A stretch of 53,592 bases of DNA from a virus. Its lineage: Duplodnaviria; Caudoviricetes. The position numbers and the translations under genes were made by a program. This document shows positions 10,937-47,943 of the stretch, one piece after another. Under the pieces are notes generated by a model that was not told where the DNA came from, made no database searches, and saw nothing but the letters and a program-made list of their open reading frames with translations. Where the stretch lies: positions 1-53,592 of the IMG/VR virus record IMGVR_UViG_3300033143_005707, one strand, 5' to 3'. Within the stretch, counting starts at the first letter, position 1, and every line of letters starts with the position of its first letter.

Positions 10937-11226
10937 CGCCTAAATTTTCAGTTGGAGAAACCGTTATATTTTACTACACTGATGTTCCAAAGCATCAGTA
11001 TCTAATGGGTGAAGAATGCGAAATATTAGAGATAGTAAAACATGATTATTTTGTTAAGCAGGGGTATGACTTTTACTACCTGCTTTCAATAACTGATTCA
11101 GATGGTTCAAAATTAGCATGTGTTGAAAAATGCTTAAAGAAAAAGAGTCCACCACCAGAAGAAGAAGAGATTGATTGGATGGAAAAACTAAACTTAAACA
11201 ACATAAAACAACTGGAAAAAGTATAA
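10933..11226 (+). CDS. Hypothetical protein (SH3/KOW-like start KFSVGETV)
   Basis: Coupled ORF. Confidence 0.6.
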   Translation: MTPKFSVGETVIFYYTDVPKHQYLMGEECEILEIVKHDYFVKQGYDFYYLLSITDSDGSKLACVEKCLKKKSPPPEEEEIDWMEKLNLNNIKQLEKV

Positions 11227-11555
11227 TGTTTGAGCGTGTAAGCAAAGGCAGGACTTATAAAAGCGTGACGCAAGATCATACTTTTTATACTACTATAAAC
11301 CATGACGATGATGGAAAGATTATAGAATTGTTCGTGCGGTTGGATGATGCCAACTTATTTGAAATGGTAAGTTTGGTCACACGGTTTTCTTCTATGCTTT
11401 TGCAATCGGGAGTTAGCCCTATTATAATAGCTAAAGAATTAAAAGATGTTTATAGTCCGGTAACATCTCACATAATTCCTAAAACAAATATAACTTGCCC
11501 TAGTATAATCGCAAGAATTGGAATGGTCTTGGAGCAACACATAAATGAAATATAG
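11226..11555 (+). CDS. Stand-alone TSCPD-like domain (class II ribonucleotide reductase C-terminal domain)
   Basis: FYTTIN.D.DG.IIELF, VTRFSSMLLQSGV....I.KEL, CPSI...IG..L; start at MFERV. Confidence 0.65.
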   Translation: MFERVSKGRTYKSVTQDHTFYTTINHDDDGKIIELFVRLDDANLFEMVSLVTRFSSMLLQSGVSPIIIAKELKDVYSPVTSHIIPKTNITCPSIIARIGMVLEQHINEI

Positions 11556-12042: not shown

Positions 12043-12315
12043 ATGAATAAGAAAAATTACGACTTAGTTTTTAAACTAACCTCCTTAACCAATGATATTA
12101 AAGGCACATTGGAAAAGCAAGAGAATGATTTAATATTGGCGATTGCTGCTAACAATAGAAGGGAGATTGAAATTAAAAAAATGGCTGCAAAAATATTAGA
12201 GCTAGAAGAAGAAGAATATACAGTTCATAAAGGCAAAAGTTATTCAGTTAATAGTGAGGAGATAGCATCACTAGGGTTAGCACTTGCTAAAGCAATCGGG
12301 GAAAAAAATGATTAA
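12043..12315 (+). CDS. Hypothetical coiled-coil protein
   Basis: 90-aa ORF in operon. Confidence 0.6.
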   Translation: MNKKNYDLVFKLTSLTNDIKGTLEKQENDLILAIAANNRREIEIKKMAAKILELEEEEYTVHKGKSYSVNSEEIASLGLALAKAIGEKND

Positions 12316-12751
12316 GTCTATAATAACGGATAAAAAAGAGTTGTCTAAAATTTGCACAATGGATGGCTGGGATATCCGTGGTGTTTCTTCAGACTTGCTA
12401 GAAACGGCTAACCACTTGTATAATGAATGTGCTGGCCTTGCCGCAAATCAAATCGGTTTTAACGCTCGTATTATAGTGGTAAAGCTGGCTCATGGTTTTG
12501 AATTAATGGTTGATCCAAAGGTTATAGAATTATCCGGTAAGTTTAAAAATGGAAAAGAAGGTTGCTTGTCCCGTCCCGAAACAATTAAAAAACCTGTTAA
12601 TGTTAAACGCTATTACAAAGTAGAAATAGTTTATGCAAATGCTGAAGGCGAATACATAAAGAAAACTTTTAAAAACTTTTATGCACGAGTAGTACAACAT
12701 GAAATGGATCATTTGGATGGAATTTTGATAAGTGAAAAATATAATGATTAA
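12308..12751 (+). CDS. def: Peptide deformylase
   Basis: All three motifs: AGLAANQIG, EGCLS, QHEMDHLDG. Confidence 0.93.
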   Translation: MIKSIITDKKELSKICTMDGWDIRGVSSDLLETANHLYNECAGLAANQIGFNARIIVVKLAHGFELMVDPKVIELSGKFKNGKEGCLSRPETIKKPVNVKRYYKVEIVYANAEGEYIKKTFKNFYARVVQHEMDHLDGILISEKYND

Positions 12752-23109: not shown

Positions 23110-23139
23110 AATATAAAATGAAATTTATTTTATAAAATA

Positions 23140-23176
23140 GAAATGGGATTCGCTTCGGCGTTTCCCATTTTTTTTT
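23140..23176 (+). terminator. Rho-independent terminator
   Basis: AAATGGGA-TT-CGC-TTCG-GCG-TT-TCCCATTT then T-run. Confidence 0.85.
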
Positions 23177-23423
23177 GGATATAGAAAATCCATGGAAAGT
23201 GGCGCATTTTAAGCCCGTATGGGGTGCGCTGGTTTTTGGCCTATACTGGCAAGGCAAAAAGGCAAAAGCCATAGAGCCAGCCTCTATGCCATATACAGGC
23301 CATTTTTAAGCAATCCTGCCCTAGTAGGCAATAGGCATAAAAACTCCTGAGAATGGCTTAGAATTCCTTAGGTGGCACTTATAAAAAGGCATTTTTTATG
23401 CCATAGCAGGTCTCCAAAAACAC

Positions 23424-24326
23424 ATGAAAAAAATTTTATTTCACAGTTTCTCTTTCCATCATGATAAATATATGAAAAAAATTCATGAAATTATCAGCGG
23501 AAGTATTTTTATCAGCCAAGAAAATAAATCTAAAATTGAAAATTGTGATTTTGAAATTGGGGTAACAAACTCGTATTTAGGATTCAACACCACGGACTTG
23601 ATTAAAAGAAAATCTAAAGAAAGCAAGTTAATTTCCTTATGCCATACAACTTTTGGATGGAGCGAGAATATCAGTTTAAGCCGATTAAATGAAAACGGTT
23701 TTATTTTTGCTGCCCCAGAATTTTGGAAAGTAAAAGAAAAAGAAAGGGTAATTTCCTACCGTGGTCATTATATGATGTTGTATCACTATTTTAATAAACC
23801 AGCTATAGAAAAAATAGATGGTGTTTTATACCTGCCTCCTTCTGGGATTAAAAAAATAGAAGAAGTTATGGAAATAATTAAAAACATAAAACAAAAAATT
23901 TATATTAAGCTGCATCCAATTAGTGAGCTAGATAACTTTCCCATAAATTGGTCTGAATCTGCAAAAGGTTTGCAGCTAAAAGATTATAAGAAAATTGAAA
24001 GTGATAGAATCAAAATTATAACAAGCAAGGAAATGTCATTGGAAATGGCAATAGATGCTTTTGATTTTATTATAGGAACGCCTCCAACTTCCGCACTTAT
24101 AGAAGCGATAGCAAGAGGCAAAATATATAATCAGAATAAGAAAGTTATTTATACAAATAATATGGAAGGGATCCCTGAAAAATACGGGATAGAATTTTCT
24201 AGTTCGCCAAAGATAAAAAACTTTGGTACAATTAATGAATCAGTTATTAATCAAATTGTTATCGGTAAAGAAAAACAAGTAAATGAAATTAAAAAACTTT
24301 TAAGCATGGAGATAGAAAATGGGTAA
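23424..24326 (+). CDS. Divergent GT-B-like transferase (HP motif; sialyl/Kdo/glycerophosphotransferase-like)
   Basis: ISLCH, VLYLPP, IYIKLHP, DFIIG...TSALIEAI pattern of GT-B C-terminal domains. Confidence 0.5.
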   Translation: MKKILFHSFSFHHDKYMKKIHEIISGSIFISQENKSKIENCDFEIGVTNSYLGFNTTDLIKRKSKESKLISLCHTTFGWSENISLSRLNENGFIFAAPEFWKVKEKERVISYRGHYMMLYHYFNKPAIEKIDGVLYLPPSGIKKIEEVMEIIKNIKQKIYIKLHPISELDNFPINWSESAKGLQLKDYKKIESDRIKIITSKEMSLEMAIDAFDFIIGTPPTSALIEAIARGKIYNQNKKVIYTNNMEGIPEKYGIEFSSSPKIKNFGTINESVINQIVIGKEKQVNEIKKLLSMEIENG

Positions 24327-24621
24327 GAGTGATGAGAAATTTGTAGTTAAAGAATTAATGGCAGCAGCAGAACTATATAAAGAAAGGAATGCCGAGTATG
24401 GCGACAACTATAAAAAAGTTGGTCAGCTGATGCTTGCATACTTTCCAGATGGAATAACTTTAAAAGAAGAAAAAGATTTTATAAGGTATTCAATGTTCAG
24501 TGCCGTGGTTAATAAAATGTTCCGCTATGCAGTAAAATTTGATGATGGCGGGCATTATGATTCCGCTCGTGATGCTGCTGTTTATGCAACAATGTTAAAT
24601 GAGATTGACCATGAAGAATAA
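24319..24621 (+). CDS. Nucleotide-modification-associated (Nmad1/DUF1599-like) helical protein
   Basis: ERNAEYGD, K..RY, DS..D..VYA.M pattern. Confidence 0.6.
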   Translation: MGKSDEKFVVKELMAAAELYKERNAEYGDNYKKVGQLMLAYFPDGITLKEEKDFIRYSMFSAVVNKMFRYAVKFDDGGHYDSARDAAVYATMLNEIDHEE

Positions 24622-25159
24622 AGATAAAATAATATTAGACACGGAAACAACTGGTTTGCTTGAACCTGCTGCTGCTTTAGTTTCTCAACAGCCATACATG
24701 ATTGAAATTTATGCTGCACGACTAGACCATAAAAATAAAATTATAGATGAAATTGAAACTTTTATTAGCTGTCCTATTGAAATTCCAAAGTTTATAACTA
24801 AGATAACAAATATAGATGATGACATGTTGCTAGGTGCTCCGGATTTCATAGAAATATATAAACCGCTAACTGAATTATTCTTGGGAACAACTGAATTAAT
24901 CGGACATAACATTAGTTTTGATGCTGGCATAATATGGGCTGCATTAAAAAGGATAGATAGAGAGTTTAAGTTTCCATGGTGTCCGGAGTGGTATTGTACA
25001 ATGGAAAATAGCATGTACTTGGAAAACAAAAGATTAAAACTTTCTAGGTTGCATGAATATGCTACAGGCAAGCCTCATAAGGATGGTGCTCACCGTGCGA
25101 AACAAGATGTGCTTGCAACTTTAAGATGTTATGAATGGTTACAGGAGCAGGGAAAATGA
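24611..25159 (+). CDS. dnaQ: DEDDh 3'-5' exonuclease (Pol III epsilon-like)
   Basis: LDTETTG, GHNISFD, HRAKQDV. Confidence 0.88.
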   Translation: MKNKDKIILDTETTGLLEPAAALVSQQPYMIEIYAARLDHKNKIIDEIETFISCPIEIPKFITKITNIDDDMLLGAPDFIEIYKPLTELFLGTTELIGHNISFDAGIIWAALKRIDREFKFPWCPEWYCTMENSMYLENKRLKLSRLHEYATGKPHKDGAHRAKQDVLATLRCYEWLQEQGK

Positions 25160-25341
25160 AAATGATAAAAACAAATGAAGAAGAAAAAATAGAAGTCGCA
25201 AGAGATATGGCTCATCCAAGTGGTAATGAGTGGCTGGGTGATCCAGAGTTTACATTTAGCAGCCATATATTTTTTGATGGAGAAGATGCAGTTGCATTTT
25301 TCATTATCCTATTTGTAATAATAGTGATTTCACTAAAATGA
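25156..25341 (+). CDS. Small membrane protein
   Basis: C-terminal hydrophobic segment; coupled ORF. Confidence 0.5.
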   Translation: MKMIKTNEEEKIEVARDMAHPSGNEWLGDPEFTFSSHIFFDGEDAVAFFIILFVIIVISLK

Positions 25342-28172
25342 AAAAAATGATTAACCTAGCACTACGCACCGAGTTTTCTTTTCAAAAAACTTATGGCTTC
25401 TTTGATGAAATTATTGACGGACAAGATAAAATTGTAGGAGTAGCAGATATAAATAATACCTTTAGTCATTTTTATCTAAATCAAAAGTGTAAGGAGGTTG
25501 GTAAGAAAGCTATCTTTGGTGTTCGCTTAATGGTTGTTAAAGCACCGGAAGAAAGGATCCCTCCGCGCGGACAATTCGGACCGGAGTATATTTTCATAGC
25601 AAAAAATTATGAAGGCTTAAAAGAAATATATAAACTAGTTGAAAGATCTTATGATTGTTTTTACTATCGTGCCCACGTTGGATTAGTTGATGTTTGGAAA
25701 CTTAGTGAAAATGTAATTGTTATCGCACCACATTTTGAAATGGATGAACGAATAGACTATATAGCAGTATGTAACACAACAAGTTCCATTGCTCTAGCAA
25801 GTTCAATTCCTAAGGTTGCCATAAACAACAACTGGATGGTTGAAGCGGATGATAACGAAGTATATGAATTATTTGCTGGTAAAAGAAAAGTAGAAAAATA
25901 TACTTTCCCTCAGCATATCCTTAGCACTAAGGAATGGATGTTTCACTATAATGATAAAGTGGCAATAAAAAATACGCATGTTATAGCGGACATGTGTGAT
26001 GTAGAGTTTCCTCATGCCGATCCTGTTGTATATAAAGGTAAAGATAAGATAAAAACACTATGCAGAAAAGGTGCAAAAGAAAAAAACATTGATTTAAAAA
26101 ACCCTATATATAAGGCTAGGCTGAAAAGAGAATTAAAATTAATAAAAGATAAAGACTTTATAGATTATTTTATGATTGTGCAGGAAATGGTTCGGAAAGC
26201 AAAAGCTGAAATGTTAGTTGGTCCTTCCCGTGGTTCAAGTGCAGGATCCCTTGTATGTTATTTGCTAGGCATAACCGAAATAGATCCCATCAAATGGGAT
26301 TTAATATTTGAAAGATTTATTGATGTAAATCGTTTTGATATGCCGGACATAGATGTAGATTTTCCAGACATTAAGCGGAGCAAAGTAGTTAAGGAGCTGA
26401 TAAGAACAAATGGAAGGGACAATGTTAAAAACATAGCAACCATTTCTAAAATGAATCCGCGTGGTGCTATAGGTGATTTTGCAAAAGAGCTGGGCATTAA
26501 TCCGGAGGAAGTTGAAGTAATTAAAAATTCTATAATTTCTCGGTCAGGTGGTGATGCCCGTAAAAATTATTGCATAATGGATACGTTTGAAACCACGGAT
26601 ACAGGTAAAGCATTTATAAAAAAATATCCACAGATGGAAGCAGTAGGGCGGATAGAAAAACATTCACGTCATTCCGGTACACATGCAGCAGGTATTATAG
26701 TCGCTACAGAACCATTGCATAATTTCGCAAGTATAGATCCTAGGGATAATACAATTCAAATAGAAGGCAAGTCTGCTGAAAAAATGAATTTGCTTAAAAT
26801 AGATTGTTTAGGTTTGTCAACGCTTACTGTACTTGAAGAAATTGCAGGGTTAATAGGAATGGACTATAGGGATTACTATACTATAGAGGCGGATGACGAT
26901 AAAGTATTTAAAATATTTAGAGAAATAAAAGTAAAGGGAATATTTCAGTTTGAAGGACATGCGCTTGCAGGACTATGTAGAAGTATTAAAGTTACAAACA
27001 TAGAAGATATTATTGCCATAACCGCACTCGCGCGTCCGGGTCCTCTCCATGGTGGTGGTGCTGCAAAATTTGCAAAGATACATTCCGGCCTAGAGGAAAT
27101 TGAATATGTAATGAAAGATAAAGATGTTGAGCGTATAACTAAAAATACGATGGGCGTTATAGTTTACCAAGAACAAATAATGCAAATCCTAAGGGATGTT
27201 GGTGGCTTTCCTTGGGCTTCTGTTGCAACTGTCCGTAAGTTAATATCTAAAAAAAGTGGTATAGAATTATTAAATAAATTCAAGTTGGAATTTATAGAAG
27301 GATCAGTTAAAAAAGGATTAGAAAAAGAAGATGTTGAGGCGGCATGGGAAAAAATATTAAAATTCGCACAGTACGGATTCAATAGAAGTCATGCCGTGGC
27401 TTATGGCCTAGTAAGTTATTGGACTGCATGGGCTAAAGTTTATCACCCCATTGAATTTTTAGTCTCAAATTTAAATCATCCCAAGGGTACTTTTTCATCA
27501 ATGCGTTTAATAAGGGAAATGAAAGAAGACCATAAATTTGAATTTATACCTTTTGATTATGAATTGTCAGAAGACAAATGGAAAATAATAGGAAATAAAG
27601 TTGTTGGTCCATTGACAAATATAGATGGCATAGGAAATGCGAATGCTATTGCTATAATGAAAAAAAGAATAACAGGTGCTCCAAACACGGCAAGCATACA
27701 AAAGAAACTTGATGAACCTAAGACTACATTTGATATCTTATATCCATGTGATCATTATTGGGGAAGGCTTTTCCTATCTCCTAAATCTTTTGGCCTCCCT
27801 AAGAAACCAACGGTCGTTAAAAGAGTTAATAAAAAAGGAACATTTTTTATAGTTGCTCAGCTTATAAAGAAAAATGTTCGTGACCTTAATGAAGCTCGCC
27901 ATGTGTTAAACCGTGGTGGTGAAATTTTAGATGAACATACAAAGCTATTAAACATAACTGTTGAAGATGACACTGGAAGTATAATGTGCAGGGTTAATAG
28001 ATTTGATTTTGATAAGCTGGGAAAGGAAGTTGCGGAAGAAGGTGAAGAGGGAGTAGACTGGTACTTAATAAAAGGAAATATAATTGCAGATGATATTATA
28101 TTTTTGTTCATATCGGAAATTCATAAATTAGGAGACGGGTACAGTGAAGGGCAAACTATTAGAGATATTTGA
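25338..28172 (+). CDS. dnaE: DNA polymerase III alpha subunit (family C)
   Basis: GPSRGSSAGSLV.Y, FERF, MPDIDVDF, HAAG, LLKID.LGL, YQEQIM, YGFNRSHA, OB-fold VEDDTG. Confidence 0.95.
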   Translation: MKKMINLALRTEFSFQKTYGFFDEIIDGQDKIVGVADINNTFSHFYLNQKCKEVGKKAIFGVRLMVVKAPEERIPPRGQFGPEYIFIAKNYEGLKEIYKLVERSYDCFYYRAHVGLVDVWKLSENVIVIAPHFEMDERIDYIAVCNTTSSIALASSIPKVAINNNWMVEADDNEVYELFAGKRKVEKYTFPQHILSTKEWMFHYNDKVAIKNTHVIADMCDVEFPHADPVVYKGKDKIKTLCRKGAKEKNIDLKNPIYKARLKRELKLIKDKDFIDYFMIVQEMVRKAKAEMLVGPSRGSSAGSLVCYLLGITEIDPIKWDLIFERFIDVNRFDMPDIDVDFPDIKRSKVVKELIRTNGRDNVKNIATISKMNPRGAIGDFAKELGINPEEVEVIKNSIISRSGGDARKNYCIMDTFETTDTGKAFIKKYPQMEAVGRIEKHSRHSGTHAAGIIVATEPLHNFASIDPRDNTIQIEGKSAEKMNLLKIDCLGLSTLTVLEEIAGLIGMDYRDYYTIEADDDKVFKIFREIKVKGIFQFEGHALAGLCRSIKVTNIEDIIAITALARPGPLHGGGAAKFAKIHSGLEEIEYVMKDKDVERITKNTMGVIVYQEQIMQILRDVGGFPWASVATVRKLISKKSGIELLNKFKLEFIEGSVKKGLEKEDVEAAWEKILKFAQYGFNRSHAVAYGLVSYWTAWAKVYHPIEFLVSNLNHPKGTFSSMRLIREMKEDHKFEFIPFDYELSEDKWKIIGNKVVGPLTNIDGIGNANAIAIMKKRITGAPNTASIQKKLDEPKTTFDILYPCDHYWGRLFLSPKSFGLPKKPTVVKRVNKKGTFFIVAQLIKKNVRDLNEARHVLNRGGEILDEHTKLLNITVEDDTGSIMCRVNRFDFDKLGKEVAEEGEEGVDWYLIKGNIIADDIIFLFISEIHKLGDGYSEGQTIRDI

Positions 28173-28749
28173 AATTAATTATAAGATGTCTGCGCTAACA
28201 AGATTTTCGCAAACGCACCTTATAAATGAAGAATCAGTTTTGGAACATACTGGTTTTGTTTGCATGATGTCATATTACATTGGTAACAAAATGATAGAGG
28301 AGGGTTGCGATTTAAACATTGGAACGCTCATGTGTAAAGCAGTAGCGCATGACATTGATGAAATTATTACAGGGGATATTCCAAGGCCAACTAAATACTA
28401 TAATGAAGGCATTAGGGAAGCCATTCAATTTATTGAAGAGGAAAACATGGAAAAAATATCCACGCAAATGGATTTTGGATATATGTTTGATGACTGGAGC
28501 GAAGCAAAAAGAGGAAAAGAGGGTGGCATTGTTGCGCTTAGTGATGCACTAGCGATACTATATAAGGTATATTATGAGGCTGTTAAGTTTGGCAATAAAA
28601 CAATTATAGATCATTTTAGATTTATTCCAGCGTCCCTTGAAAGAATAGAAAAAAGAATAATAAAAGATACTGGTCATTCTGATTTTTTGCAATCGCTTAT
28701 AAAAGAAGCTAAACTACTATGCTTAACAATATCAAAACTGGAGCAGTAG
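28144..28749 (+). CDS. HD-domain 5'-deoxynucleotidase (YfbR/DatZ-like)
   Basis: RF, ESVLEH, HDIDEIITGDIP.PTK, V..SD. Confidence 0.85.
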   Translation: MKGKLLEIFEINYKMSALTRFSQTHLINEESVLEHTGFVCMMSYYIGNKMIEEGCDLNIGTLMCKAVAHDIDEIITGDIPRPTKYYNEGIREAIQFIEEENMEKISTQMDFGYMFDDWSEAKRGKEGGIVALSDALAILYKVYYEAVKFGNKTIIDHFRFIPASLERIEKRIIKDTGHSDFLQSLIKEAKLLCLTISKLEQ

Positions 28750-28750
28750 A

Positions 28751-29872
28751 ATGAAAATTAATATAGTTAAATTAAATTGTGAGGATGAAAATGAAACGTC
28801 ACTTTCGCTTCGTGCTTGGGAATATTCAAGGTCGCCTGGGAATACAACTGCTGAGGAAATATTTGAATTAAATTTGCCAGTAAATGAAATGCCAAGTGCA
28901 ATCCTTGAAATTGAATCAACAATTTTAGAACGTGAAATAATTGTTAGCATGAGGGATCATAATGTTTGGGCTAGGACATCACGCGTTGATGATCCATTAA
29001 AATTTGATATACCAGTTATCATTAACCTTGGTAAGTATAAAGATTTAAAAGAAGAATCCATAAGCCTGATGACTGATGCAAAAAATATTGGGATGCGACA
29101 AGATGAATATAGAATGTTGCTGCCATTAATTGCATTAACAAAATATACGATTTCTATAAACTTACGTTCCTTAATTTTACTTCGTAATTTCTTTAAAGAT
29201 CTTTATGACACTGGTATTTATAGGTCAAACCTTCCGCCTGTTATATTACTAGGTGCTTATAAAAATTTATCTAATGTTATTGTTAAAATGACAGGTAGTG
29301 CTAACCTTGATAAATATCCAAATATTAATTTGCTGCCAGTATTAAAAGAAAAAACCAGTGGCAGACACGGAGGTTTTATAACGTACTCCGGAACAATTAA
29401 TTTTGGATTAAGGTCGCATCTTATAAGGCATAGAAGCGTTTTTATGAATGATAATTTACTTGAAATTATAAATTCAGAATCCTTTGATAAACTAACATTA
29501 GAATCTAAAGTTGAAATTAATGTCACATCAAGTGTTGAATTTTGGACGCGCATAGTTTCAAATCGTAGTTGTTGGCTTGCACACTATGGAATGTGGAAAG
29601 GCTTATTAGATGAAGTTTCTAAACACATAGATAGTGATATAGATAAAATCCTTCCGTGCAGTTGTGGTGCATGTCCGTTTGGAGCAGACAATGAATTGCG
29701 ACTAGAAAATAAAGATCCTAATCCCCCATGTCCAATTTATATTTCTAATAATAACATTGTGACAAATAAAAAAGTTATTGATGAAATGGTAAACCAAATG
29801 CTTGAAGATGAAAGGCCAGTTTTCTGGGCAGCTGAAATTAATAAAGCAAGAAAAATATGGAGTGGTGAATGA
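28751..29872 (+). CDS. Divergent tandem-domain ThyX-like flavoprotein
   Basis: Domain 1 RDHNVWARTSRV and DEYRMLLP...T.Y...INLRSL; domain 2 SHLIRHRS and R.CWLAH, C-terminal Cys cluster. Confidence 0.65.
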   Translation: MKINIVKLNCEDENETSLSLRAWEYSRSPGNTTAEEIFELNLPVNEMPSAILEIESTILEREIIVSMRDHNVWARTSRVDDPLKFDIPVIINLGKYKDLKEESISLMTDAKNIGMRQDEYRMLLPLIALTKYTISINLRSLILLRNFFKDLYDTGIYRSNLPPVILLGAYKNLSNVIVKMTGSANLDKYPNINLLPVLKEKTSGRHGGFITYSGTINFGLRSHLIRHRSVFMNDNLLEIINSESFDKLTLESKVEINVTSSVEFWTRIVSNRSCWLAHYGMWKGLLDEVSKHIDSDIDKILPCSCGACPFGADNELRLENKDPNPPCPIYISNNNIVTNKKVIDEMVNQMLEDERPVFWAAEINKARKIWSGE

Positions 29873-30495
29873 TGCAGCCATGTAAAAAATTAATACTGTT
29901 TGATCTAGACGGTGTCCTTATTGATTCTAAAAAGAATATGGAAATGGCTTGGCAAGTTGTACAAGAAAAAATGAATGTGCCAGTTGCCTTTGAAGAATAT
30001 TTTAAACATATCGGTAAGCCTTTTAAAAACATAATGGAAGCACTGGAACTTGACGCGTGGACTTATGAAATAGAAAGTTTATTTAAGGAACAATCTATTT
30101 TAAATATAGATGAAGTTAATTTTTATCCCAATGTTGAAACAGTTTTGTCACAGTTAGGGAAAACATATCAACTAGGAATAATTACTTCAAAGGACAGGGA
30201 AAGAACAGGATTAATACTTTCTAGGTTAAATAATAAATTTGAAGTAGTTGCAACTCCCAATGATGCTTTAAGGGGTAAGCCAGCACCGGATCATTTATTA
30301 CATGCTATGGCAATAAGAAATGTTGATCCAAGTGAAACTATATATATAGGAGACATGGAAGTTGATTTGGTTGCAGCACGGAGAGCAAAAATTGACTATA
30401 TACATGCACTATGGGGGTATGAATCTGATGTGCTATGCCATCGTTCAATATCAAAAATTGAAATGCTTCCTCTTTTGCTTAAGGAAATGCAATGA
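29869..30495 (+). CDS. HAD-family phosphatase
   Basis: FDLDGVLIDS, ITSK, KPAPD, YIGDMEVD. Confidence 0.9.
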   Translation: MMQPCKKLILFDLDGVLIDSKKNMEMAWQVVQEKMNVPVAFEEYFKHIGKPFKNIMEALELDAWTYEIESLFKEQSILNIDEVNFYPNVETVLSQLGKTYQLGIITSKDRERTGLILSRLNNKFEVVATPNDALRGKPAPDHLLHAMAIRNVDPSETIYIGDMEVDLVAARRAKIDYIHALWGYESDVLCHRSISKIEMLPLLLKEMQ

Positions 30496-31223
30496 GAGTT
30501 GTAGGATTAATTCCTTGCCGATATAGCTCAACAAGATTTCTTGGAAAGCCATTAGCAATCATAAATTATAAGCCAATGATGTGGCATGTTTATCAGCGGT
30601 GCATGGAATCCTCATTGCTAAATCAAGTTTTTATCGTAACCGATAATACCGCAATTTTTGGAGCAGCCAAAAGACTAGGATTAAATGTTTTAATGACAAG
30701 AGGAAATCATGAAACAGGCACGGACAGAATTGCTGAAGCAGCGGAAACACTGGATGCAGACTACTATGTAAACATACAAGGCGATGAGCCAATGATGGAT
30801 CCCAATGTAATTGACTTGGTTGCCATGGAAATAATAGATTGCCTTGACGAAACTGTTGTTGCATCAAATGCTTTTTTAGAAATAAAAAATAAGGCTGAAA
30901 TTAATGACCCAAATGTGGTAAAGGTTATTTTTTCAAAAAATAAATTGGCACTAGCGTTTTCTAGATCTGCTATTCCATATTCAAAAGAAAACCATTGTAA
31001 ATATTATAAGCAATTAGGAATATACGCTTTTAAAAAAGAAGGGCTATTACTATTTAAAAATACAAAACCACTAGAGATTGAAAAGATAGAAGGAGTTGAA
31101 ATGTATCGGCTAATTGAAAATAATTATAATATAAAAATGATTGAAGCACATGAAGAATCAATTTCTGTAGATACTCATGAAGACCTTAATAGGGTTATTA
31201 AAGCAATGGAGAAAAATAAATGA
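30492..31223 (+). CDS. kdsB: 3-deoxy-manno-octulosonate cytidylyltransferase (CMP-Kdo synthetase)
   Basis: IPCRYSSTRF.GKPL, GTDRIAEA, NIQGDEP, VKV, FSRS.IPY, GIYAF, E.IE..E.YR, SVDT.EDL. Confidence 0.88.
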   Translation: MRVVGLIPCRYSSTRFLGKPLAIINYKPMMWHVYQRCMESSLLNQVFIVTDNTAIFGAAKRLGLNVLMTRGNHETGTDRIAEAAETLDADYYVNIQGDEPMMDPNVIDLVAMEIIDCLDETVVASNAFLEIKNKAEINDPNVVKVIFSKNKLALAFSRSAIPYSKENHCKYYKQLGIYAFKKEGLLLFKNTKPLEIEKIEGVEMYRLIENNYNIKMIEAHEESISVDTHEDLNRVIKAMEKNK

Positions 31224-31648
31224 AAGTATATATAGCCGCACCATTTTTCAATGAACAACAATTAAAAACAGTTGAGCAAATTAAATTATTGCTCACCGAT
31301 TTAGGGATCAATTATTTTAGCCCAAAAGATGAGTGCATGTTTATCAAGGGTGAAACAAAGCCGGAAGATATTCTTAAAATGAATCTTGATAACATTGAAG
31401 AATGTACTTGTATGATAGCAGTAACTGAAGGGAAAGATATGGGGACATTATTTGAATGCGGATACGCACATGCAAAAGGTCAAGACATTATTTACTTTTG
31501 GCAAAATATAGACCCTTCATTAAAGTTTAATCTCATGCTTAGTGCGAGCAGCTATGTTGTGGCCAGAACATATAAAGATCTAGAAAAAGCATTATGCATG
31601 ATAGACATGGGATTAGCCGGTGAGCAGTTTGTAGGCGAGCTGGAGTGA
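31220..31648 (+). CDS. Nucleoside 2-deoxyribosyltransferase-like / nucleotide N-glycosidase
   Basis: KVYIAAPFF, YFSP, D.GTLFECGYA, NLML. Confidence 0.85.
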   Translation: MKVYIAAPFFNEQQLKTVEQIKLLLTDLGINYFSPKDECMFIKGETKPEDILKMNLDNIEECTCMIAVTEGKDMGTLFECGYAHAKGQDIIYFWQNIDPSLKFNLMLSASSYVVARTYKDLEKALCMIDMGLAGEQFVGELE

Positions 31649-31986
31649 TAAAATTAAGGTGGTATTTAATGGGAAGGTTTAAAGGCTTTTCTGAAACGGA
31701 AAAAAGTTTTGTTCGTGGGGTTTCCCGTGTGCCGAATTCAATAACTTTCTTTTGCAAAGACTGCGGAAAAACTTGGCTGAAAATAAAAGTTATTTCTGAT
31801 GAAACTATGTGGGAGTCAAAGCAAAGACTATGTCCAAATTGTGGTCCTGCCCCGCTTGCAATTTCAGAAAATGGAGTTTGGAAATATCCATTGCCTGAAA
31901 AACTAGACAAACGTGAAATGGAAGCCATGAAAAAATGTGGTGGCTTTAAAGGATATGAAGCCCATTTAATAACAGGAGGTTCATAG
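31645..31986 (+). CDS. Zinc-binding hypothetical protein
   Basis: CKDCG..W and CPNCG. Confidence 0.6.
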   Translation: MIKLRWYLMGRFKGFSETEKSFVRGVSRVPNSITFFCKDCGKTWLKIKVISDETMWESKQRLCPNCGPAPLAISENGVWKYPLPEKLDKREMEAMKKCGGFKGYEAHLITGGS

Positions 31987-32309
31987 TGAAACAAAGATGG
32001 TTTGCAACTGAGCCAGTTAGGAAAAGCGGAGTAACTTATTATGAAATTTATAATAAATTAAATAAAACGAGAGTGTTTTGTCAAACAAAAGAGAAACGTT
32101 CAGTTGCTAGGATAGCAATTAAGGCAACACTTGAAAGAATGAATAGATCACGATAAGGAAAATAAAATGAAAGATGACATGAAAGAATTAGCTGGCGTTA
32201 TGGTTGTAATATCTTTTTTTAGATATGCGTTCATAGCTATTATTTTAACACTAGGAGAACCGGACTTAATAGACGGGATATACAATCTATTAAGCTCGTT
32301 CCAATAAGT

Positions 32310-41682: not shown

Positions 41683-42125
41683 GATGTTGCTACCTCCATA
41701 TTGAATGTAATGCTTGCGCCTTGAAAATGAACTGACGCTCTATCTGTTTCTATATAGCCTTGCTCAACTTCAAAGTTATTAATTATATCAACTGTTCCAC
41801 CTAATGTTGTATCTTTTAAAATTGCATTTATTATTTTCTGCACATAACCTTCTAATACTTCTTCACATTTTGATGCAGAAATAAGGTCTGTATATTGAAC
41901 AATAATTCTTAATGAAGGAGTTGCTTCCCAATTATTCATGCTACCTAAAGTTCGTGGTGCGTATCCGACTTTGCCCCTGTATATACCTATCCATGGAACC
42001 CTATTTGGATCGTAATTTATTATTTCACCGACTACAACATTCTTGCGATTCATAAATTCCGATACTTCAATGTTTTCATTAAGTATTTTTTCTACAGCTT
42101 TTGTTATGTCGTTGAAATTAATCAT
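41679..42125 (-). CDS. Tail terminator-like protein
   Basis: Position; D.TLGGTV motif. Confidence 0.6.
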   Translation of the reverse strand: MINFNDITKAVEKILNENIEVSEFMNRKNVVVGEIINYDPNRVPWIGIYRGKVGYAPRTLGSMNNWEATPSLRIIVQYTDLISASKCEEVLEGYVQKIINAILKDTTLGGTVDIINNFEVEQGYIETDRASVHFQGASITFNMEVATS

Positions 42126-42622
42126 TTGTTTATACTCTTTTTAACATGTGCGTTCATTATTTTTTCTGCGCCTTCTTCAACTTCTTTATCAACTGGTAAA
42201 ACTCTTCTTTGCGGAACATTTATACCCTTGTTATGAGTCTTAGAGTAAGGTAAATCTGATCCTACTCCTGCAATTTTCTTGCTTGCAAATGGCAAGAACG
42301 ATGCTCTTAATCTCCCAGTGTCTTGTAATAATTTTGCACTTGTATCAATTCCGCTACCTTTAACTCTTCTTTTCTTTACATTGAATCTTTTATCATGCCT
42401 TCTTGATTTTCTTCTGCCGCCAATTTTAAATGGTTGCCAGCCGCCAACACTATCACCTTCACTTTTAAAATTCTTTTGAACCCATCTATCTAAAAATATA
42501 GATATTTTAGTAAAGGTTGTTTTTGTTTCTTTTAACGCTTCCTTGCGATCCCTATATCTTTCCCTTAACGCTTTAAGCGTCGGCTTAAATGTAAACTCAA
42601 CTTCTTTATTCTTTGCCATCAT
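42122..42622 (-). CDS. Virion morphogenesis / tail completion protein (Mu gpG-like)
   Basis: NF..EG, W, LQDTGRLRAS, Y...HN.G..VPQR. Confidence 0.75.
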   Translation of the reverse strand: MMAKNKEVEFTFKPTLKALRERYRDRKEALKETKTTFTKISIFLDRWVQKNFKSEGDSVGGWQPFKIGGRRKSRRHDKRFNVKKRRVKGSGIDTSAKLLQDTGRLRASFLPFASKKIAGVGSDLPYSKTHNKGINVPQRRVLPVDKEVEEGAEKIMNAHVKKSINK

Positions 42623-43322: not shown

Positions 43323-46022
43323 TTAATTCCTTGTATCTATTTTAATATTAGAATTTTCTGTATTCATAAAAGGTCTATTAGACTTACTTTCACTATATAA
43401 TTCAACTATAGATTCTTCTGTTTTTGTATACGTGTCAACTGGATTATAATCAGGTGAAATTAATTTATTAAATTGATTACCCCATACATAATTTCCTTTA
43501 ACACCATCACCTGCATACAAAGGTATTCCTATTGGTTCTACCGTATGCGGAACATCTGAAAAGAATACAAAAGCGCGTAGTGAAGTTTGCACTGTTTCAA
43601 ATCCTCTTAATGTAATTCTGTAATACCCATTATTTTCTTTAGTAAGTTTAGGGGCAATTGCATAAAATGTTTTCTCATCTGCGTTAGGATCATAATATGT
43701 TATTCTTGAAGTTCCATTTATTAAATCAATCTCAACTACTTGAGAATCATTAGCAGGACTAAACAATCTAAAAAAGGCGTATCTTATATCTAAATATTTT
43801 AAATGAATTGAAAACCCATAAAGAGAATTTACAATAGTAGGGTAGATTCTATAAAGAGCACCACCATAAGTTGAACCGACATTAGGAATCATTTTATCAG
43901 CAGTAAGTTCACCATTAGGATCAGTACCAACATTTGGATCTATAGTACAAGTTGATGTGAGATAAGCGGCATTATCCATCTGTTCACTATATGTTGCTAA
44001 GTTTTCAAACCACTCTAAAGCATGTCCTTTACCTTTAGATGTGCTTATCTCTACACCTTTACTTTTAATATTCATTAATATATAACCACGGACAAGTGAC
44101 CATAACTCTCTTACAATTTCATCTTGTAAGTTTACATTATCAGAAAGTATCCTTTGAAGTCCTTGCGGTACAGGTATATAAGTTCTTATTATTGCATCAA
44201 ATAGCTCGGTATTATCTAGTAATAATCTACTTAGATTTTTATCTTGCAATAAACTATCAACGGCGACTATAGAACTTAAAACACCACGAGTAAATTCTTT
44301 ATTATATAATTGATTATCTGATACGCTTATGCTACTTCCAAATATTCTTACAACAACATCAGCGATGGAGGTGATAAGAGAAGAAATTGCATCTTGCACA
44401 TTTGCCGAATCATTTAATGATCTTCTTAATAACTTCGCTGTTAGCGCAGCATCGTTTAGACCTACTAGGCTAGTCAATCCCCGAGTTAAATTTGAAATTA
44501 TATCAAGTGCATCAAGTATTTCTATTTCACTTGATAAAACTCTGGTAAGAATTATACCTTGTAACAGGCTAATTATCGCATCTGTTATCTCCGTGGTGTC
44601 AGTAAGTTTTCTATTTAATAACTTTTCAATCTGTAAAGATTCATTAAATTCAACTGCGCTTGACAACAACCTAGTTGAATTAGAAACTAATAAAATAGCA
44701 TCAAAGATATTTAACTCACTAGATAAAACTCTGGTTTTTATAACCCCTTGGATTAAACTTACTATTGCATCGGCTACTTCAGTATTGTCATTTAGAGAGC
44801 GAAGTAATAATTTTTCAATATGCAAAGTGTCGCTTGCGCTAACACTCCCAATTAATAATCTAAATAATAAAGCACTTTGACTTACGTTATCATTTATATC
44901 TAATGAGCTTGCCAATACTCTGGTGAATAAAACGCCACCAAATATTTCTCTTAATAATAAATCAAACAGTTCAATATTATCAGTTGCTAAACGAATCGCT
45001 AATACTTGTGCAATTAGTTTATCATTAATTTCTAAGTTACTAGATAAGAATCTTTCCGCTATTACATTTGCAGACTCTATTGTTCTTATTATATTGTCAT
45101 TTGCATCTACGTTATTCGCAGTTGTATAATTTATATCTTGTAATCTTTCTAGCGTTCCATCGTCAACATTAATATTACTACTTAATGTTCTTTCAATGGC
45201 TGCAACATAAAGCTGAATAGTTCTTATTAATAAATCATTTGTATCCAGTGTGCTTAACAATGCGCGAACCAGAAGTTCTTCAACAACGGCACTATCCTGA
45301 ACATTTAAACTTGAGGCTAAAGTAACAAGGTGAAGTGATGTGGATTTTATTTCATCACTTACGTTTAAGCCACTACTTAAAATTCTTAATATCGGTGCAA
45401 CTGAAACAACACTTGAAATAGTATCGTTTAAATTTAAAGAACTGATTATGCTTCTTAGTTTATTTTCATACGCTTGCTGCTGGTCTTGTGCATCTATATC
45501 ACTGTTAAGTGTACGCTCGTATATAGTGCTCGTTGGTGCTGGCGTATAAGTTATAACAACCTGAAGCGTATCTATGTGCCAAGTGTTAGCCGTAGGCATT
45601 CCACCTTGAACCCCGACAACATCTACTTGCATTCCATTTAGCTGCGCAACTGTCCAATCACTATTCCATGCGCCAGTATTTCTTGATCCTAAAGTTTGAT
45701 GGGTGTTAGTAAGTTCTCCTGCTGAACCACCAACTGCACCTTGAGGAGTTCCACCAATAACTAAATCAACTTCAAAACTTTCATCGCCACCATCGGTAGT
45801 AACTCTGCCACGAAGAACTATAGCAACATTAGTAATAGTATCTGCATCAACAATATCAACAATGTCAGCCATATCAATAGTGACAACATCACCTTCACCA
45901 GTTGCATCTGAAGAAATTTCATTCCCATCAGCCGCAGCAATACCTTCAGATATATTACTACCTGTTCCATTCCAGCCTGTGCCAGAATAAACACCATCAG
46001 GAAATAGAATTTCTTCAGCCAT
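43323..46022 (-). CDS. Long repetitive head fibre/spike-like protein
   Basis: Many ~20-23-aa R.L.S.....D repeats; C-terminal NL..YSE...NGYYRI...YVWG.Q carbohydrate-binding-like domain. Confidence 0.6.
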   Translation of the reverse strand: MAEEILFPDGVYSGTGWNGTGSNISEGIAAADGNEISSDATGEGDVVTIDMADIVDIVDADTITNVAIVLRGRVTTDGGDESFEVDLVIGGTPQGAVGGSAGELTNTHQTLGSRNTGAWNSDWTVAQLNGMQVDVVGVQGGMPTANTWHIDTLQVVITYTPAPTSTIYERTLNSDIDAQDQQQAYENKLRSIISSLNLNDTISSVVSVAPILRILSSGLNVSDEIKSTSLHLVTLASSLNVQDSAVVEELLVRALLSTLDTNDLLIRTIQLYVAAIERTLSSNINVDDGTLERLQDINYTTANNVDANDNIIRTIESANVIAERFLSSNLEINDKLIAQVLAIRLATDNIELFDLLLREIFGGVLFTRVLASSLDINDNVSQSALLFRLLIGSVSASDTLHIEKLLLRSLNDNTEVADAIVSLIQGVIKTRVLSSELNIFDAILLVSNSTRLLSSAVEFNESLQIEKLLNRKLTDTTEITDAIISLLQGIILTRVLSSEIEILDALDIISNLTRGLTSLVGLNDAALTAKLLRRSLNDSANVQDAISSLITSIADVVVRIFGSSISVSDNQLYNKEFTRGVLSSIVAVDSLLQDKNLSRLLLDNTELFDAIIRTYIPVPQGLQRILSDNVNLQDEIVRELWSLVRGYILMNIKSKGVEISTSKGKGHALEWFENLATYSEQMDNAAYLTSTCTIDPNVGTDPNGELTADKMIPNVGSTYGGALYRIYPTIVNSLYGFSIHLKYLDIRYAFFRLFSPANDSQVVEIDLINGTSRITYYDPNADEKTFYAIAPKLTKENNGYYRITLRGFETVQTSLRAFVFFSDVPHTVEPIGIPLYAGDGVKGNYVWGNQFNKLISPDYNPVDTYTKTEESIVELYSESKSNRPFMNTENSNIKIDTRN

Positions 46023-47406: not shown

Positions 47407-47943
47407 CTATAGAGCGTGTGAACCGATTTGTATTTCCATTTGTACTTTAAGGAAATCCGAAGCGTTTAATGTTGCATCAACACTATTAACATGATTTCCA
47501 AAAATACCGGAACCAGAACTAGCATGATTAATGATACCAGCAGAAGCAAGAGCGACACCTGTTAAGGTATCTGTATTTCCTGCCCATGTTGCAACTAAAA
47601 TCGCAACCTCATTAGAGCTTACTATAGTAGCTCCAATCTTCCGACTAACTTCACCAAGACCAGCTTGAGTAGACCCAAGTGAACCTTGATTAGTTACTGT
47701 ACCGATTGCAATATATTGAAACGCGGAATTAGTACCAGTGGCATCACCAATCATTAATTCTGCGATTGCATTTAAACCGTCCTTGGTTACAATGTTTTCA
47801 CATTCATGTTTTTCAACGGAACCATCAGCACGAGTAATTTCAAATTTCCATTTACCCTTAACGGCTAAACCGTCACCTAAGTTTCCACCAATAGTCTGCT
47901 TAAATTTATTAAGCAATTTTTGTTCAGAAGTATCTTGACTCAT
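47407..47943 (-). CDS. Virion structural protein (fibre base-like)
   Basis: NIVT..GL, YIAIGT, LGEV.R, AGI motifs typical of fibre-attachment domains. Confidence 0.6.
   Translation of the reverse strand: MSQDTSEQKLLNKFKQTIGGNLGDGLAVKGKWKFEITRADGSVEKHECENIVTKDGLNAIAELMIGDATGTNSAFQYIAIGTVTNQGSLGSTQAGLGEVSRKIGATIVSSNEVAILVATWAGNTDTLTGVALASAGIINHASSGSGIFGNHVNSVDATLNASDFLKVQMEIQIGSHAL

Follow-up and report, generated by a model that had tools for sequence, protein, structure and literature searches.

A replication operon of a marine phage combining a divergent ThyX-fold enzyme, a GT-B-fold transferase and an inserted kdsB gene: a possible thymidine hypermodification system

Does a single operon of a marine phage encode the means to build a modified DNA base, and would CMP-Kdo take part? 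The question is raised by the run of genes at 23424-32156 of IMGVR_UViG_3300033143_005707, a complete, A+T-rich marine phage genome (53.6 kb, 35% GC), all 53,592 nt of which constitute the window analyzed here. An earlier note had proposed that a ThyX-like enzyme creates a reactive pyrimidine, that a HAD phosphatase and KdsB supply CMP-Kdo, and that a GT-B transferase attaches the sugar to DNA.

Layout of the operon

All ORFs of the run lie on the + strand, and those at 23424-31648 overlap at their starts and stops by 4-29 nt, except for the pair at 28749/28751, which merely abuts; the ORF check thus bears out the description of a co-oriented, mostly overlapping gene run. Upstream lies a gap (23110-23423, + strand) with a terminator-like hairpin at 23200-23231. 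Because a promoter scan returned 49 sites versus 41.5 expected from shuffles and so did not rise above them, the placing of the operon start in this gap is a suggestion.

The first gene (23424-24326) encodes P0001, a protein of 300 aa identified from a predicted model and Foldseek as an HP-motif GT-B-fold transferase of the TagF/KpsC-like kind. It is followed by a 100-aa DUF6378-like helical protein (24319-24621), immediately 5′ of a DnaQ-type 3′-5′ exonuclease (24599-25159; PF00929, 1.2e-19; phrog_192, 3e-41); by a 68-aa ORF without assigned function (25135-25341), for which no match was found in Pfam, PHROG or NCBIfam or in four relatives; and by a DnaE-type DNA polymerase III alpha (25338-28172; PF07733, 9e-66; PF17657, 1e-37), which is 72% and 68% identical to those of the closest relatives. 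Next come a YfbR-like HD phosphohydrolase of the deoxynucleotidase/dNTPase type (28144-28749; PF12917, 2.7e-22; phrog_7076, 6e-18; PDB YfbR 2paq, 3.6e-10); ThyXL, a divergent ThyX-fold enzyme of 373 aa with a C-terminal four-cysteine region, recognized by profile and predicted model (28751-29872); a HAD subfamily IA phosphatase (29869-30495; PF13419, 3.8e-31); the CMP-Kdo synthetase KdsB (30492-31223; PF02348, 1.2e-43); and an NDT-family protein of the nucleoside deoxyribosyltransferase or dNMP N-glycosidase type (31220-31648; PF05014, 1.1e-15; PDB 6evs, 1.1e-9; CMP N-glycosidase 4jen, 3e-3). Two small ORFs (a 113-aa zinc-ribbon-like protein and one of 56 aa; 31645-32156) end the run, with sub-threshold zinc-ribbon matches only and no match in four relatives.

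Eight of the nine gene labels in the earlier note (GT-B, DnaQ, DnaE, HD, divergent ThyX, HAD, KdsB and NDT) were retained. The ninth, “Nmad1-like” for 24319-24621, was not borne out: the matches found were phrog_4889 (1.2e-13), a weak DUF6378 hit (E 0.04) and DUF6378-type Atlas neighbors. Profile searches of the complete genome detected no ThyA (PF00303), TGT/DpdA (PF01702) or PurZ-type (PF00709) gene, in agreement with that note. Outside the operon, a 1004-aa GT4-methyltransferase-GT2 protein is encoded at 47924-50938, adjoining the capsid genes. The operon is best read as the replication module of the phage.

ThyXL and the conserved HD, ThyXL and NDT genes

Pfam Thy1 (PF02511) matched ThyXL at E 1.5e-3 and 18.8 bits, under the 24.8-bit cut-off, and its identity to canonical ThyX, which it exceeds by roughly 170 residues, is 13-15%. 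Its AlphaFold model (pLDDT 92), on the other hand, matched ThyX structures in Foldseek (E 3.5e-6, prob 1.0, TM by target 0.60-0.67). ThyXL therefore shares the ThyX fold, with a weak alignment (hhalign E 4e-3, prob 7.8%) that pairs several Arg residues of the core, but it has a second half that ThyX lacks as well as a cluster of cysteines, and a PDB sequence search up to E 1 gave no match. In the window, and likewise in all five relatives of 96% completeness or more, ThyXL is the one gene of the thymidylate synthase family; neither a normal ThyX nor ThyA was found in these genomes. The distant relatives Ss1 and VA-RY-3 (DnaE 44% identical) contain a normal Thy1 gene (PF02511, 4e-38) at a similar place, and ThyXL, HD and NDT were not found in them. 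This complementary distribution, like the aligned Arg residues, favors an ordinary nucleotide economy, in which ThyXL is a very divergent dTMP synthase standing in for the canonical ThyX, host deoxynucleotides are channeled into the A+T-rich phage genome by the HD enzyme (from dNMP to deoxynucleoside) and by NDT (through base exchange), the DNA is canonical, and the genes for P0001, KdsB and HAD are morons or auxiliary genes with no link to the trio. We regard such an economy as a substantial possibility, if not on balance a probable one; the distance of ThyXL from canonical ThyX, its extra residues and the missing PDB match speak against it.

The gene content of related loci was determined by tblastn in 71 IMG/VR viral loci retrieved with a ThyXL profile. 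NDT was found in 70 loci, ThyXL in 69, HD in 65, the 24319-24621 protein in 58, DnaQ in 55 and DnaE in 52. HD, ThyXL and NDT are present together in 65 of the 71, usually with DnaQ/DnaE adjoining; NDT lies directly 3′ of ThyXL in 61/69 loci, and the three genes are contiguous in 59/65. The conserved core is thus the HD/ThyXL/NDT trio and not the proposed Kdo pathway: the expected co-occurrence next to dnaE held for the trio and failed for kdsB (0/71) and largely for the P0001-type transferase (2/71). As the majority of relatives have the trio without a transferase, the trio functions without decoration, which suits plain dTMP synthesis and salvage equally. In relatives, the variable slots flanking the module hold tailoring-type enzymes, which speaks for hypermodification: SDRs in L036, L045, L047, L058 and L062, besides an aminotransferase (L045) and a sulfotransferase (L055). 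A YfbR-like HD enzyme and an NDT-family enzyme, DatZ and DmtZ, are described as a pool-clearing pair of Z-genome phages, where they likewise accompany genes of nucleotide synthesis (PMC12884076), a further point in favor of hypermodification; by contrast, the window is without a PurZ-type gene, and the pair is joined there by a pyrimidine-type (ThyX-fold) enzyme.

The P0001 family and Yersinia phage YerA41

P0001 had no match in Pfam, PHROG or NCBIfam. Its AlphaFold model (pLDDT 91.5) matched the GT-B enzymes GT4 2jjm, BshA, YojK and TagF in Foldseek (E 2e-5 to 9e-4, prob 0.98-1.0, TMq 0.42-0.50), and the protein contains a KLHP motif, of which H164-P165 is invariant or near-invariant across the family; S223/E227 are conserved as well. 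The reading of the 23424 ORF as a GT-B enzyme with KLHP is thereby upheld on the predicted model. P0001 has the same fold as the CMP/CDP-donor HP-motif GT-B-like enzymes TagF, which is among its best matches, and KpsC/KpsS (beta-Kdo transferases), and it keeps the HP motif; however, it is smaller, and neither the 16 family members nor the YerA41 proteins match Pfam Glyphos_transf or Capsule_synth. Its donor cannot be read from the predicted fold. The family is rare (16 representatives among 1.84 billion) and adjoins ThyXL in three arrangements: in the window, in L004 (between HD and ThyXL) and in L038 (just upstream). A weaker HMM match lies in the ThyXL-bearing Vibrio phage Va2. This recurrent placement within or adjoining the trio argues against an ordinary nucleotide economy.

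The T4-type hmC pathway employs a ThyA-family hydroxymethylase, a dCTPase and GT-B glucosyltransferases. Its logic, in which a modified pyrimidine nucleotide is made, the canonical one is removed and a GT-B enzyme glycosylates after replication, may be shared by the window, but the candidate base-modifying enzyme is of the ThyX rather than the ThyA fold, and HD and NDT would clear the pool; no T4 glucosyltransferase was among the best 50 Foldseek matches to the P0001 model.

The thymidine of YerA41 has been shown to bear an oligosaccharide-like group of ~1 kDa (about 1044 Da) (PMC9023294). Its protein YerA41_081 (QSM00782.1) is 28% identical to ThyXL (94% coverage, E 3e-23) and retains all invariant non-cysteine residues, the four cysteines being missing. 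The sole Thy1-like match of YerA41 falls in this protein, its only thymidylate-synthase-family gene, and PF00303 gave no match in the phage; a homology-based table entry lists QSM00782.1 as a thymidylate-synthase variant for 5hmdUMP synthesis (PMC12686479). Next to the polymerase, gp143 is a YfbR-like HD protein (PF12917, 6.9e-22) homologous to that of the window (E 3e-15), and YerA41_086 is an NDT-like gene. The P0001 HMM matched gp147 and gp152 (E 1.2e-26 and 9.2e-12), and hhalign aligned P0001 with the two over 254 columns (prob 98.9%, E 3.2e-17), whereas a control with the window's own GT4 domain, another GT-B, gave prob 0.3%. Both gp147 and gp152 lie in a sugar block adjoining the polymerase, with SDRs and a cytidylyltransferase. 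The co-occurrence of all four families in a phage with hypermodified thymidine (PMC9023294) argues against an ordinary economy and renders plausible the pyrimidine-modification scheme of the earlier note (a ThyX-fold enzyme, HD/NDT clearing, the phage's own polymerase and an HP-motif GT-B). That the scheme lacks precedent does not hold: sugar-decorated thymidine is described for SP-15, YerA41 and Carin-5, with KpsC-like (Kdo-transferase-like) GTs and cytidylyltransferases annotated (GenBank; PMC12686479).

Four components are shared with this group through YerA41, namely ThyXL, a polymerase-adjoining HD protein, an NDT-like protein and the HP-motif GT family, and the GTs of either system come with a cytidylyltransferase. 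However, SP-15, YerA41 and Carin-5 have genomes of ~145-220 kb with a UDG-fused PolA and a multi-gene sugar block, whereas the 53.6-kb window has DnaE/DnaQ and a single GT; YerA41 has IspD-SDR where the window has KdsB, and the four-cysteine region of ThyXL is missing from YerA41. Modified thymidine was shown in those phages, and the window is known from its genes alone. Moreover, the DNA of YerA41 and Carin-5 is reported to have resisted standard sequencing (PMC9023294, PMC12686479), whereas ordinary metagenome sequencing sufficed to assemble the window and its relatives, which favors an ordinary economy and speaks against near-complete substitution by a group of the same bulk in this phage.

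The kdsB and HAD genes and the sugar donor

The window KdsB exceeds the NCBIfam cut-offs (NF009905, 260.9/255; NF003952, 259.8/193; TIGR00466, 166.2/155.2), and its PDB matches to KdsB/KpsU range from 1e-30 to 6e-41, the best being the capsule enzyme KpsU (1gq9, 5.7e-41). Its gene is translationally coupled within the operon, inserted together with that of HAD between ThyXL and NDT, and no other nucleotide-sugar synthetase was detected there, which makes CMP-Kdo the leading candidate donor. It is conceivable, then, that KdsB, with HAD as an analogue of Kdo-8-phosphate phosphatase, raises CMP-Kdo and that P0001 places Kdo or a related ulosonic acid on a ThyXL-derived pyrimidine. The HP motif of P0001 and its neighbors in fold and features, among them the CDP-glycerol transferase TagF, fit this full scheme, as does the GenBank annotation of gp147/gp152 as KpsC-like beta-Kdo transferases, a label of the depositors that was not reproduced here. 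Gram-negative hosts make CMP-Kdo, and a GT-bearing relative without kdsB (L004/G001) is thus compatible with that donor. We nevertheless consider the full scheme quite unlikely. Among relatives keeping the other genes, kdsB and HAD are absent (0/71 loci, 0/5 whole viral records and 0/4 ThyXL-carrying isolates), which is the outcome that the earlier note had itself named as refuting its proposal. The IspD-SDR paired with the YerA41 GTs is not a KdsB and points to CDP-alditol-type donors for P0001-type enzymes. A literature search returned, in the portions of the sources it reached, no report of Kdo on DNA. HAD as a partner in Kdo supply is not supported either: it belongs to subfamily IA, its best NCBIfam/PDB matches are of the phosphoglycolate phosphatase, PpaX and beta-PGM types and not of the KdsC type, and no such HAD gene adjoined kdsB in 69 bacterial kdsB loci.

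Alternatively, KdsB, HAD and possibly P0001 may serve an acceptor other than DNA, either host LPS or capsule (for superinfection exclusion or envelope upkeep during infection) or, with the large multi-GT protein at 47924-50938, virion proteins. The presence of this second GT protein and the kinship with KpsU are consistent with such a role, as is the host-like character of KdsB, which is 54-61% identical to bacterial KdsB (54% to a Candidatus Thioglobus protein), as expected for an auxiliary gene captured recently. Cyanophage S-SCSM2R is reported to carry kdsA and kdsB as auxiliary genes for the cell wall (PMC12801897), and tblastn gave a match in that phage. By equivalog cut-offs and structure matches the window KdsB resembles these proteins, but it lies within a replication/nucleotide operon without kdsA rather than in a cell-wall gene block. 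The position of the insert amid a tightly conserved nucleotide operon, and the fact that P0001 relatives with context adjoin only ThyXL or the polymerase-linked sugar block of YerA41, render a non-DNA acceptor rather unlikely.

The explanation that we tentatively prefer, at a little under an even chance, is a compact YerA41-type system for hypermodification of thymidine at pyrimidine C5, with KdsB/HAD best read as a recently inserted, lineage-specific add-on. It draws on gene identities, folds, conservation and YerA41 homology, from which we infer all the chemical steps. ThyXL, as a flavin-type ThyX-fold enzyme, would yield dUMP substituted at C5 (5-hydroxymethyl-dUMP, for example), either in place of dTMP or in addition to it; removal of the competing canonical nucleotide would fall to the YfbR-like HD hydrolase together with the N-glycosidase/transferase of the NDT family; DnaE/DnaQ would polymerize the altered nucleotide pool; and P0001 may decorate the base after replication from a CMP- or CDP-activated donor, for which CMP-Kdo would be the foremost candidate in this lineage. 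Modified DNA in this marine phage is therefore plausible.

The operon and its conserved trio

The best single reading of the operon at 23424-32156 (+), which we hold tentatively and at a little short of an even chance, is that it would encode a pyrimidine C5 modification system of the type found in the Yersinia phage YerA41, because a trio of genes (a YfbR-like HD protein, the ThyX-like protein ThyXL and an NDT-family protein) is conserved, is present in YerA41, and is accompanied by a rare transferase family common to both genomes. All of the ORFs named in the earlier note were found; they run in one direction and most of them overlap, by 4-29 nt. The labels DnaQ, DnaE, YfbR-like HD, HAD phosphatase, KdsB and NDT are borne out by Pfam, PHROG and NCBIfam. 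The HD protein (28144-28749, +) scores 79.8 bits against PF12917 (cut-off 25.9) and matches YfbR in the PDB (3.6e-10), and the NDT-family protein (31220-31648, +) scores 58.2 bits against PF05014 (cut-off 28.8), matches PDB 6evs (1.1e-9) and carries, within the motif ...LFECGYA..., a Glu that we take to be the catalytic residue. The protein called "Nmad1-like" is DUF6378-like instead, as judged by PHROG, Pfam and its Atlas neighbours, which are DUF6378-type; the Nmad1 Pfam family gave no match at E up to 5, and only DUF6378 (0.04), Tudor_5 and CMV_1a were returned. A Pfam-family search of the complete window found no ThyA, TGT/DpdA or PurZ-type gene, in agreement with the earlier note, and a Z-base scheme (no PurZ-type gene), a deazaguanine scheme (no TGT/DpdA) and a ThyA-type hydroxymethylase were rejected on these grounds.

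ThyXL (373 aa; 28751-29872, +) had been labeled a divergent ThyX. It falls under the gathering cut-off of Thy1 (PF02511; 18.8 bits vs. 24.8), yet its structure model, built on 25 homologues (pLDDT 92), matches ThyX: a Foldseek search of the PDB gave 144 matches at E up to 1e-3 (best E 3.5e-6, probability 1.0), and the structural matches listed are all ThyX/FDTS structures. As modeled, ThyXL has the ThyX fold. The 25-member profile found no ThyX among PDB sequences at E up to 1, returning chance matches only. ThyX enzymes carry the motif RHR followed by Ser, and arginines that bind dUMP; in the ThyXL family, R68, R78, R121, R139 and the triplet R226-H227-R228 are invariant, and the register with two phage ThyX sequences is weak (hhalign probability 7.8%, E 4e-3). 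Four cysteines (C274, C303, C308, and C327), invariant in the 25 family members, are kept in Xanthomonas phage phiXF1 and all lost in YerA41; they probably form a structural metal site that is not essential for catalysis.

The ThyXL family comprises 38 proteins in a collection of 5.8 billion, from which alignment A1 was made. Single-protein scans of IMG/VR with ThyXL or KdsB gave no matches; a scan with the ThyXL-family profile retrieved 71 viral loci, many of them short contigs, in which genes were sought by tblastn with the window proteins. NDT was detected in 70 of these 71 loci, ThyXL in 69 and HD in 65, followed by the DUF6378-like gene (58/71), DnaQ (55/71), DnaE (52/71) and the transferase (2/71). 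NDT lies directly after ThyXL in 61 of the 69 loci having both, and 59 of the 65 loci with HD, ThyXL and NDT have the trio side by side. In other relatives, the variable slots beside the module are occupied by SDRs, by an aminotransferase or by a sulfotransferase.

In the main rival explanation, ThyXL is no more than a divergent thymidylate synthase, and the role of HD and NDT is to recycle deoxynucleotides. Normal ThyX or ThyA is absent from the window and from all five complete ThyXL-bearing relatives, and the more distant cultured phages Ss1 and VA-RY-3 (DnaE 44% identical) carry a normal ThyX and no trio; such a complementary distribution fits a plain thymidylate synthase. Furthermore, most relatives are without any transferase, which fits ordinary dTMP supply or salvage, and the related genomes were assembled from ordinary metagenomes, which fits canonical DNA. 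We consider this explanation a serious one, albeit rather doubtful.

Likeness to phages with hypermodified thymidine

A tblastn search of 50,697 phage records with ThyXL gave five hits: phiXF1, the Yersinia ruckeri phages YerA41 and GN1, Vibrio phage Va2 and, weakly, a Streptococcus phage. Sugar-decorated thymidine itself is already known from SP-15, YerA41 and Carin-5, which are described as hypermodified by glycosylation of a linker at thymine C5 (PMC13697223). According to the description of YerA41, its DNA resists restriction and ordinary polymerases, and its thymidine bears an oligosaccharide-like substituent of ~1044 Da on a 104-Da linker (PMC9023294). In YerA41, the ThyXL match falls on gene 081 (QSM00782.1), which was deposited as hypothetical and is listed in Table 1 of a later paper as the YerA41 thymidylate-synthase variant for 5hmdUMP synthesis (PMC12686479). 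It retains every invariant family residue but the four cysteines. YerA41 has no ThyA-family match, and its sole Thy1-like match falls in gene 081; in the window, likewise, ThyXL is the only thymidylate-synthase-family gene. The literature search, PMC8989533 included, returned no paper on a ThyX-fold hydroxymethylase in the portions of text available.

The remaining members of the trio also have counterparts in these phages. A YfbR-like HD gene (tblastn E 3e-15 to the window HD) lies directly upstream of the YerA41 polymerase, and YerA41_086 (41695-42231 of the YerA41 stretch L081), deposited as a mannosyltransferase, matches the window NDT (26% over 144 aa, E 2e-6) and is probably an NDT-like N-glycosidase or transferase. 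The gene after ThyXL in phiXF1 is NDT-like, and an HD gene precedes ThyXL in the Streptococcus phage. The pairing of HD with NDT in the window parallels that in Z-genome phages, in which DatZ (YfbR-like) and DmtZ (NDT family) are reported to remove dATP and dAMP (PMC12884076). The replicases differ: YerA41 has a UDG-fused A-family polymerase (SP15-like DNAP), whereas the window has DnaE and DnaQ.

The transferase common to both genomes is P0001 (300 aa; 23424-24326, +), which had been proposed to be a GT-B protein with a KLHP motif. Its model has a GT-B fold (pLDDT 91.5), and the motif is present in the C-terminal domain with its His-Pro conserved (H164 invariant and P165 at least 90% in 16-17 sequences, YerA41 proteins included). 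Foldseek gave probabilities of 0.98-1.0 to 2jjm, 3mbo, 7vm0, 3l7l/3l7j, and 1v4v, with TM values (0.42-0.50) that are probably modest because of the domain angle; the best structural matches are GT4, BshA, YojK, the CDP-glycerol transferase TagF and UDP-GlcNAc 2-epimerase, and the Atlas structure search returned TagF-family clusters (TM 0.69-0.71). P0001 itself matches no Pfam, PHROG or NCBIfam family, none of 16 members of its family matches Glyphos_transf or Capsule_synth (Pfam) at E up to 1, the family profile gave chance matches only in the PDB, and tblastn with P0001 found no match in the phage records. The family is rare, with 16 representatives in 1.84 billion, three of which are covered by genomic context. 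A scan with its sub-alignment recovered only a known contig (L152, the contig of the related locus L004), and none was found in JGI metagenomes. In L004, P0001 has its homologue between HD and ThyXL, and in another related locus, L038, just upstream of ThyXL.

The P0001 HMM finds the YerA41 proteins gp147 and gp152 directly (E 1.2e-26 and 9.2e-12), and profile alignment with both over 254 columns, which brought the HP and the S-x-L-x-E motifs into line, gave an hhalign probability of 98.9% (E 3.2e-17); in a control, the P0001 profile against the window's own GT4 domain gave 0.3%. Depositors annotated gp147 and gp152 as KpsC-like beta-Kdo transferases, a label that was not reproduced, neither protein having a Pfam match at E up to 0.1. 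Both are encoded in a block beside the YerA41 polymerase, together with two SDRs, an esterase, an IspD-SDR cytidylyltransferase and a phosphodiesterase. The cytidylyltransferase, YerA41_151 (43990-45357 of the YerA41 stretch L082), is an IspD-type enzyme fused to an SDR, an architecture known for CDP-alditol synthases. The YerA41 modification is described as containing a repeating residue of 184 Da (PMC9023294), which by arithmetic equals a tetritol-phosphate residue (C4H9O6P). The YerA41 decoration may accordingly be teichoic-acid-like and not a sugar chain.

KdsB, the HAD phosphatase and the sugar donor

KdsB (30492-31223, +) exceeds three NCBIfam cut-offs (NF009905, 260.9/255; NF003952, 259.8/193; TIGR00466, 166.2/155.2) and falls under those of two other KdsB models (NF003950, 195.9/234; NF003948, 174.7/281). 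Thirteen distinct KdsB/KpsU sequences in the PDB, every one bearing the name KdsB, match it over residues ~3-237 (E 1e-30 to 5.7e-41). Its closest homologues are bacterial-type proteins (54-61% identity); one of them (54%) is from Candidatus Thioglobus, a hint that the host may be a gammaproteobacterium of the SUP05 type. In NCBIfam, the HAD protein (29869-30495, +) scores best with subfamily IA models (AHBA_synth_RP, PpaX, PGP), without reaching the equivalog cut-off of any. Phosphoglycolate phosphatases, beta-PGM and HAD-type pyrophosphatases make up most of the 42 entries that it matches in the PDB (E up to 1e-5), the others likewise being of the HAD fold, and none carries the name KdsC. 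KdsC, the Kdo-8-phosphate phosphatase, belongs to HAD subfamily IIIA, and a KdsC assignment was rejected in view of these subfamily IA matches.

The two genes sit exactly between ThyXL and NDT, which are adjacent in most relatives, and by this placement they are an insertion. Their GC and GC3 are like those of neighboring genes, and thus there is no compositional sign of recent transfer. None of 69 bacterial kdsB loci has a HAD homologue nearby, a count that misses the closest donors because the kdsB genes retrieved are only 33-41% identical. By tblastn with the window proteins, KdsB and HAD were found in none of the 71 related loci; the KdsB Pfam family was found in none of five related records taken whole, of which four are 96% complete or better, and in none of four cultured phages carrying ThyXL. 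The complete genome of L004 has no kdsB. None of the 120 best KdsB homologues, moreover, is encoded on a contig of 55.5 or 53.0 kb, the lengths for the two closest ThyXL homologues (P0005 and P0006), an indirect sign that their contigs lack the gene. The earlier note, which proposed that CMP-Kdo made through KdsB and HAD is transferred to DNA by the GT-B protein, had itself named the absence of these genes from relatives keeping the others as a refutation of that proposal, and this is the distribution found.

For Kdo on DNA there are points on both sides. The operon has no donor synthetase other than KdsB, P0001 is of a predicted CMP/CDP-donor kind, and Gram-negative hosts provide CMP-Kdo anyway; against this, kdsB is unique to the window genome, HAD is not KdsC-like, and the YerA41 glycosyltransferases are paired with an IspD-type enzyme. 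We regard Kdo on DNA as quite unlikely, and the literature search returned, in the portions of text available, no paper on Kdo-modified DNA. Alternatively, KdsB may serve in cell-envelope or virion glycosylation, for which cyanophage kdsA/kdsB genes offer a precedent as regards the cell envelope (PMC12801897); this, too, seems unlikely, though not remote. It is tempting to speculate that P0001 would decorate a 5-substituted uracil in DNA, itself derived through the ThyX-fold enzyme, with Kdo or a related CMP-activated ulosonic acid, and that, more broadly, the trio (at least 65 marine viral contigs) would form a widespread flavin-dependent route to modified pyrimidines, in which swappable tailoring genes (GT, SDR, aminotransferase, sulfotransferase, KdsB) give phage-specific decorations, although we judge this combined scheme improbable.

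Genome setting and significance

The window spans the whole of a complete viral record in IMG/VR (53,592 bp; GC content ~35%), which has direct repeats at its termini (a 114-bp repeat). The early/replication arm consists of plus-strand genes (~9.7 to 32.2 kb), and the minus-strand remainder forms the structural arm (portal, terminase, tape measure, tail tube, capsid, and protease). Twenty-three of 81 window ORFs are matched in any of four complete relatives (G001, G003, G004, and G005), and all of these lie within 5.8-31.6 kb except for two that match G005 weakly, the portal and the tape-measure gene; no similarity of the structural arm (tape measure, tail tube) to the four genomes was detected. 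By these comparisons the genome is mosaic, with a replication arm common to DnaE-type relatives and an unrelated structural arm, and the trio accordingly moves together with the DnaE replication module. Megablast of the operon region against the phage records gave no match, and the promoter count of the region was not above that of shuffled sequence.

An ATP-dependent DNA ligase (PF01068) follows NDT in close relatives (L004:11598-12656; L047:8250-9338), and ORFs of ~350-370 aa occupy this place in many related loci. In the window it holds two small ORFs only (31645-32156), and no window ORF matches the ligase. A 1004-aa fusion of GT4 (GT-B), SAM methyltransferase and GT2 domains (47924-50938, −), absent from the four relatives compared, adjoins the major capsid and protease genes and may glycosylate virion proteins or join another modification. 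Two adjacent radical SAM proteins (82-840 and 795-1484, −; PF04055, 1e-13 and 3e-10), with a weak QueE-like PHROG match, are encoded in the stretch that separates the portal gene from the end of the genome. Other genes include a peptide deformylase (12284-12751, +; PF01327, 1.5e-31), a common auxiliary gene of marine phages, and a stand-alone TSCPD-domain protein (11175-11555).

The biosynthesis of sugar-decorated thymidine in SP-15, YerA41, and Carin-5 is unsolved, all three being large phages that are difficult to sequence. Here, homologues of the suspected key genes (a ThyX-fold enzyme, HD, NDT, and one transferase) and a donor synthetase are packed into ~8 kb of a 53.6-kb genome, and such a compact operon opens the pathway to direct tests by heterologous expression. 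Should ThyXL prove to be a thymidylate synthase and nothing more, the finding would amount to a divergent enzyme family and a captured kdsB gene. If, on the other hand, it is a flavin-dependent hydroxymethylase or similar enzyme, such an activity would be new to the ThyX fold, and many marine phages would carry modified pyrimidines that go unseen by current metagenomics.
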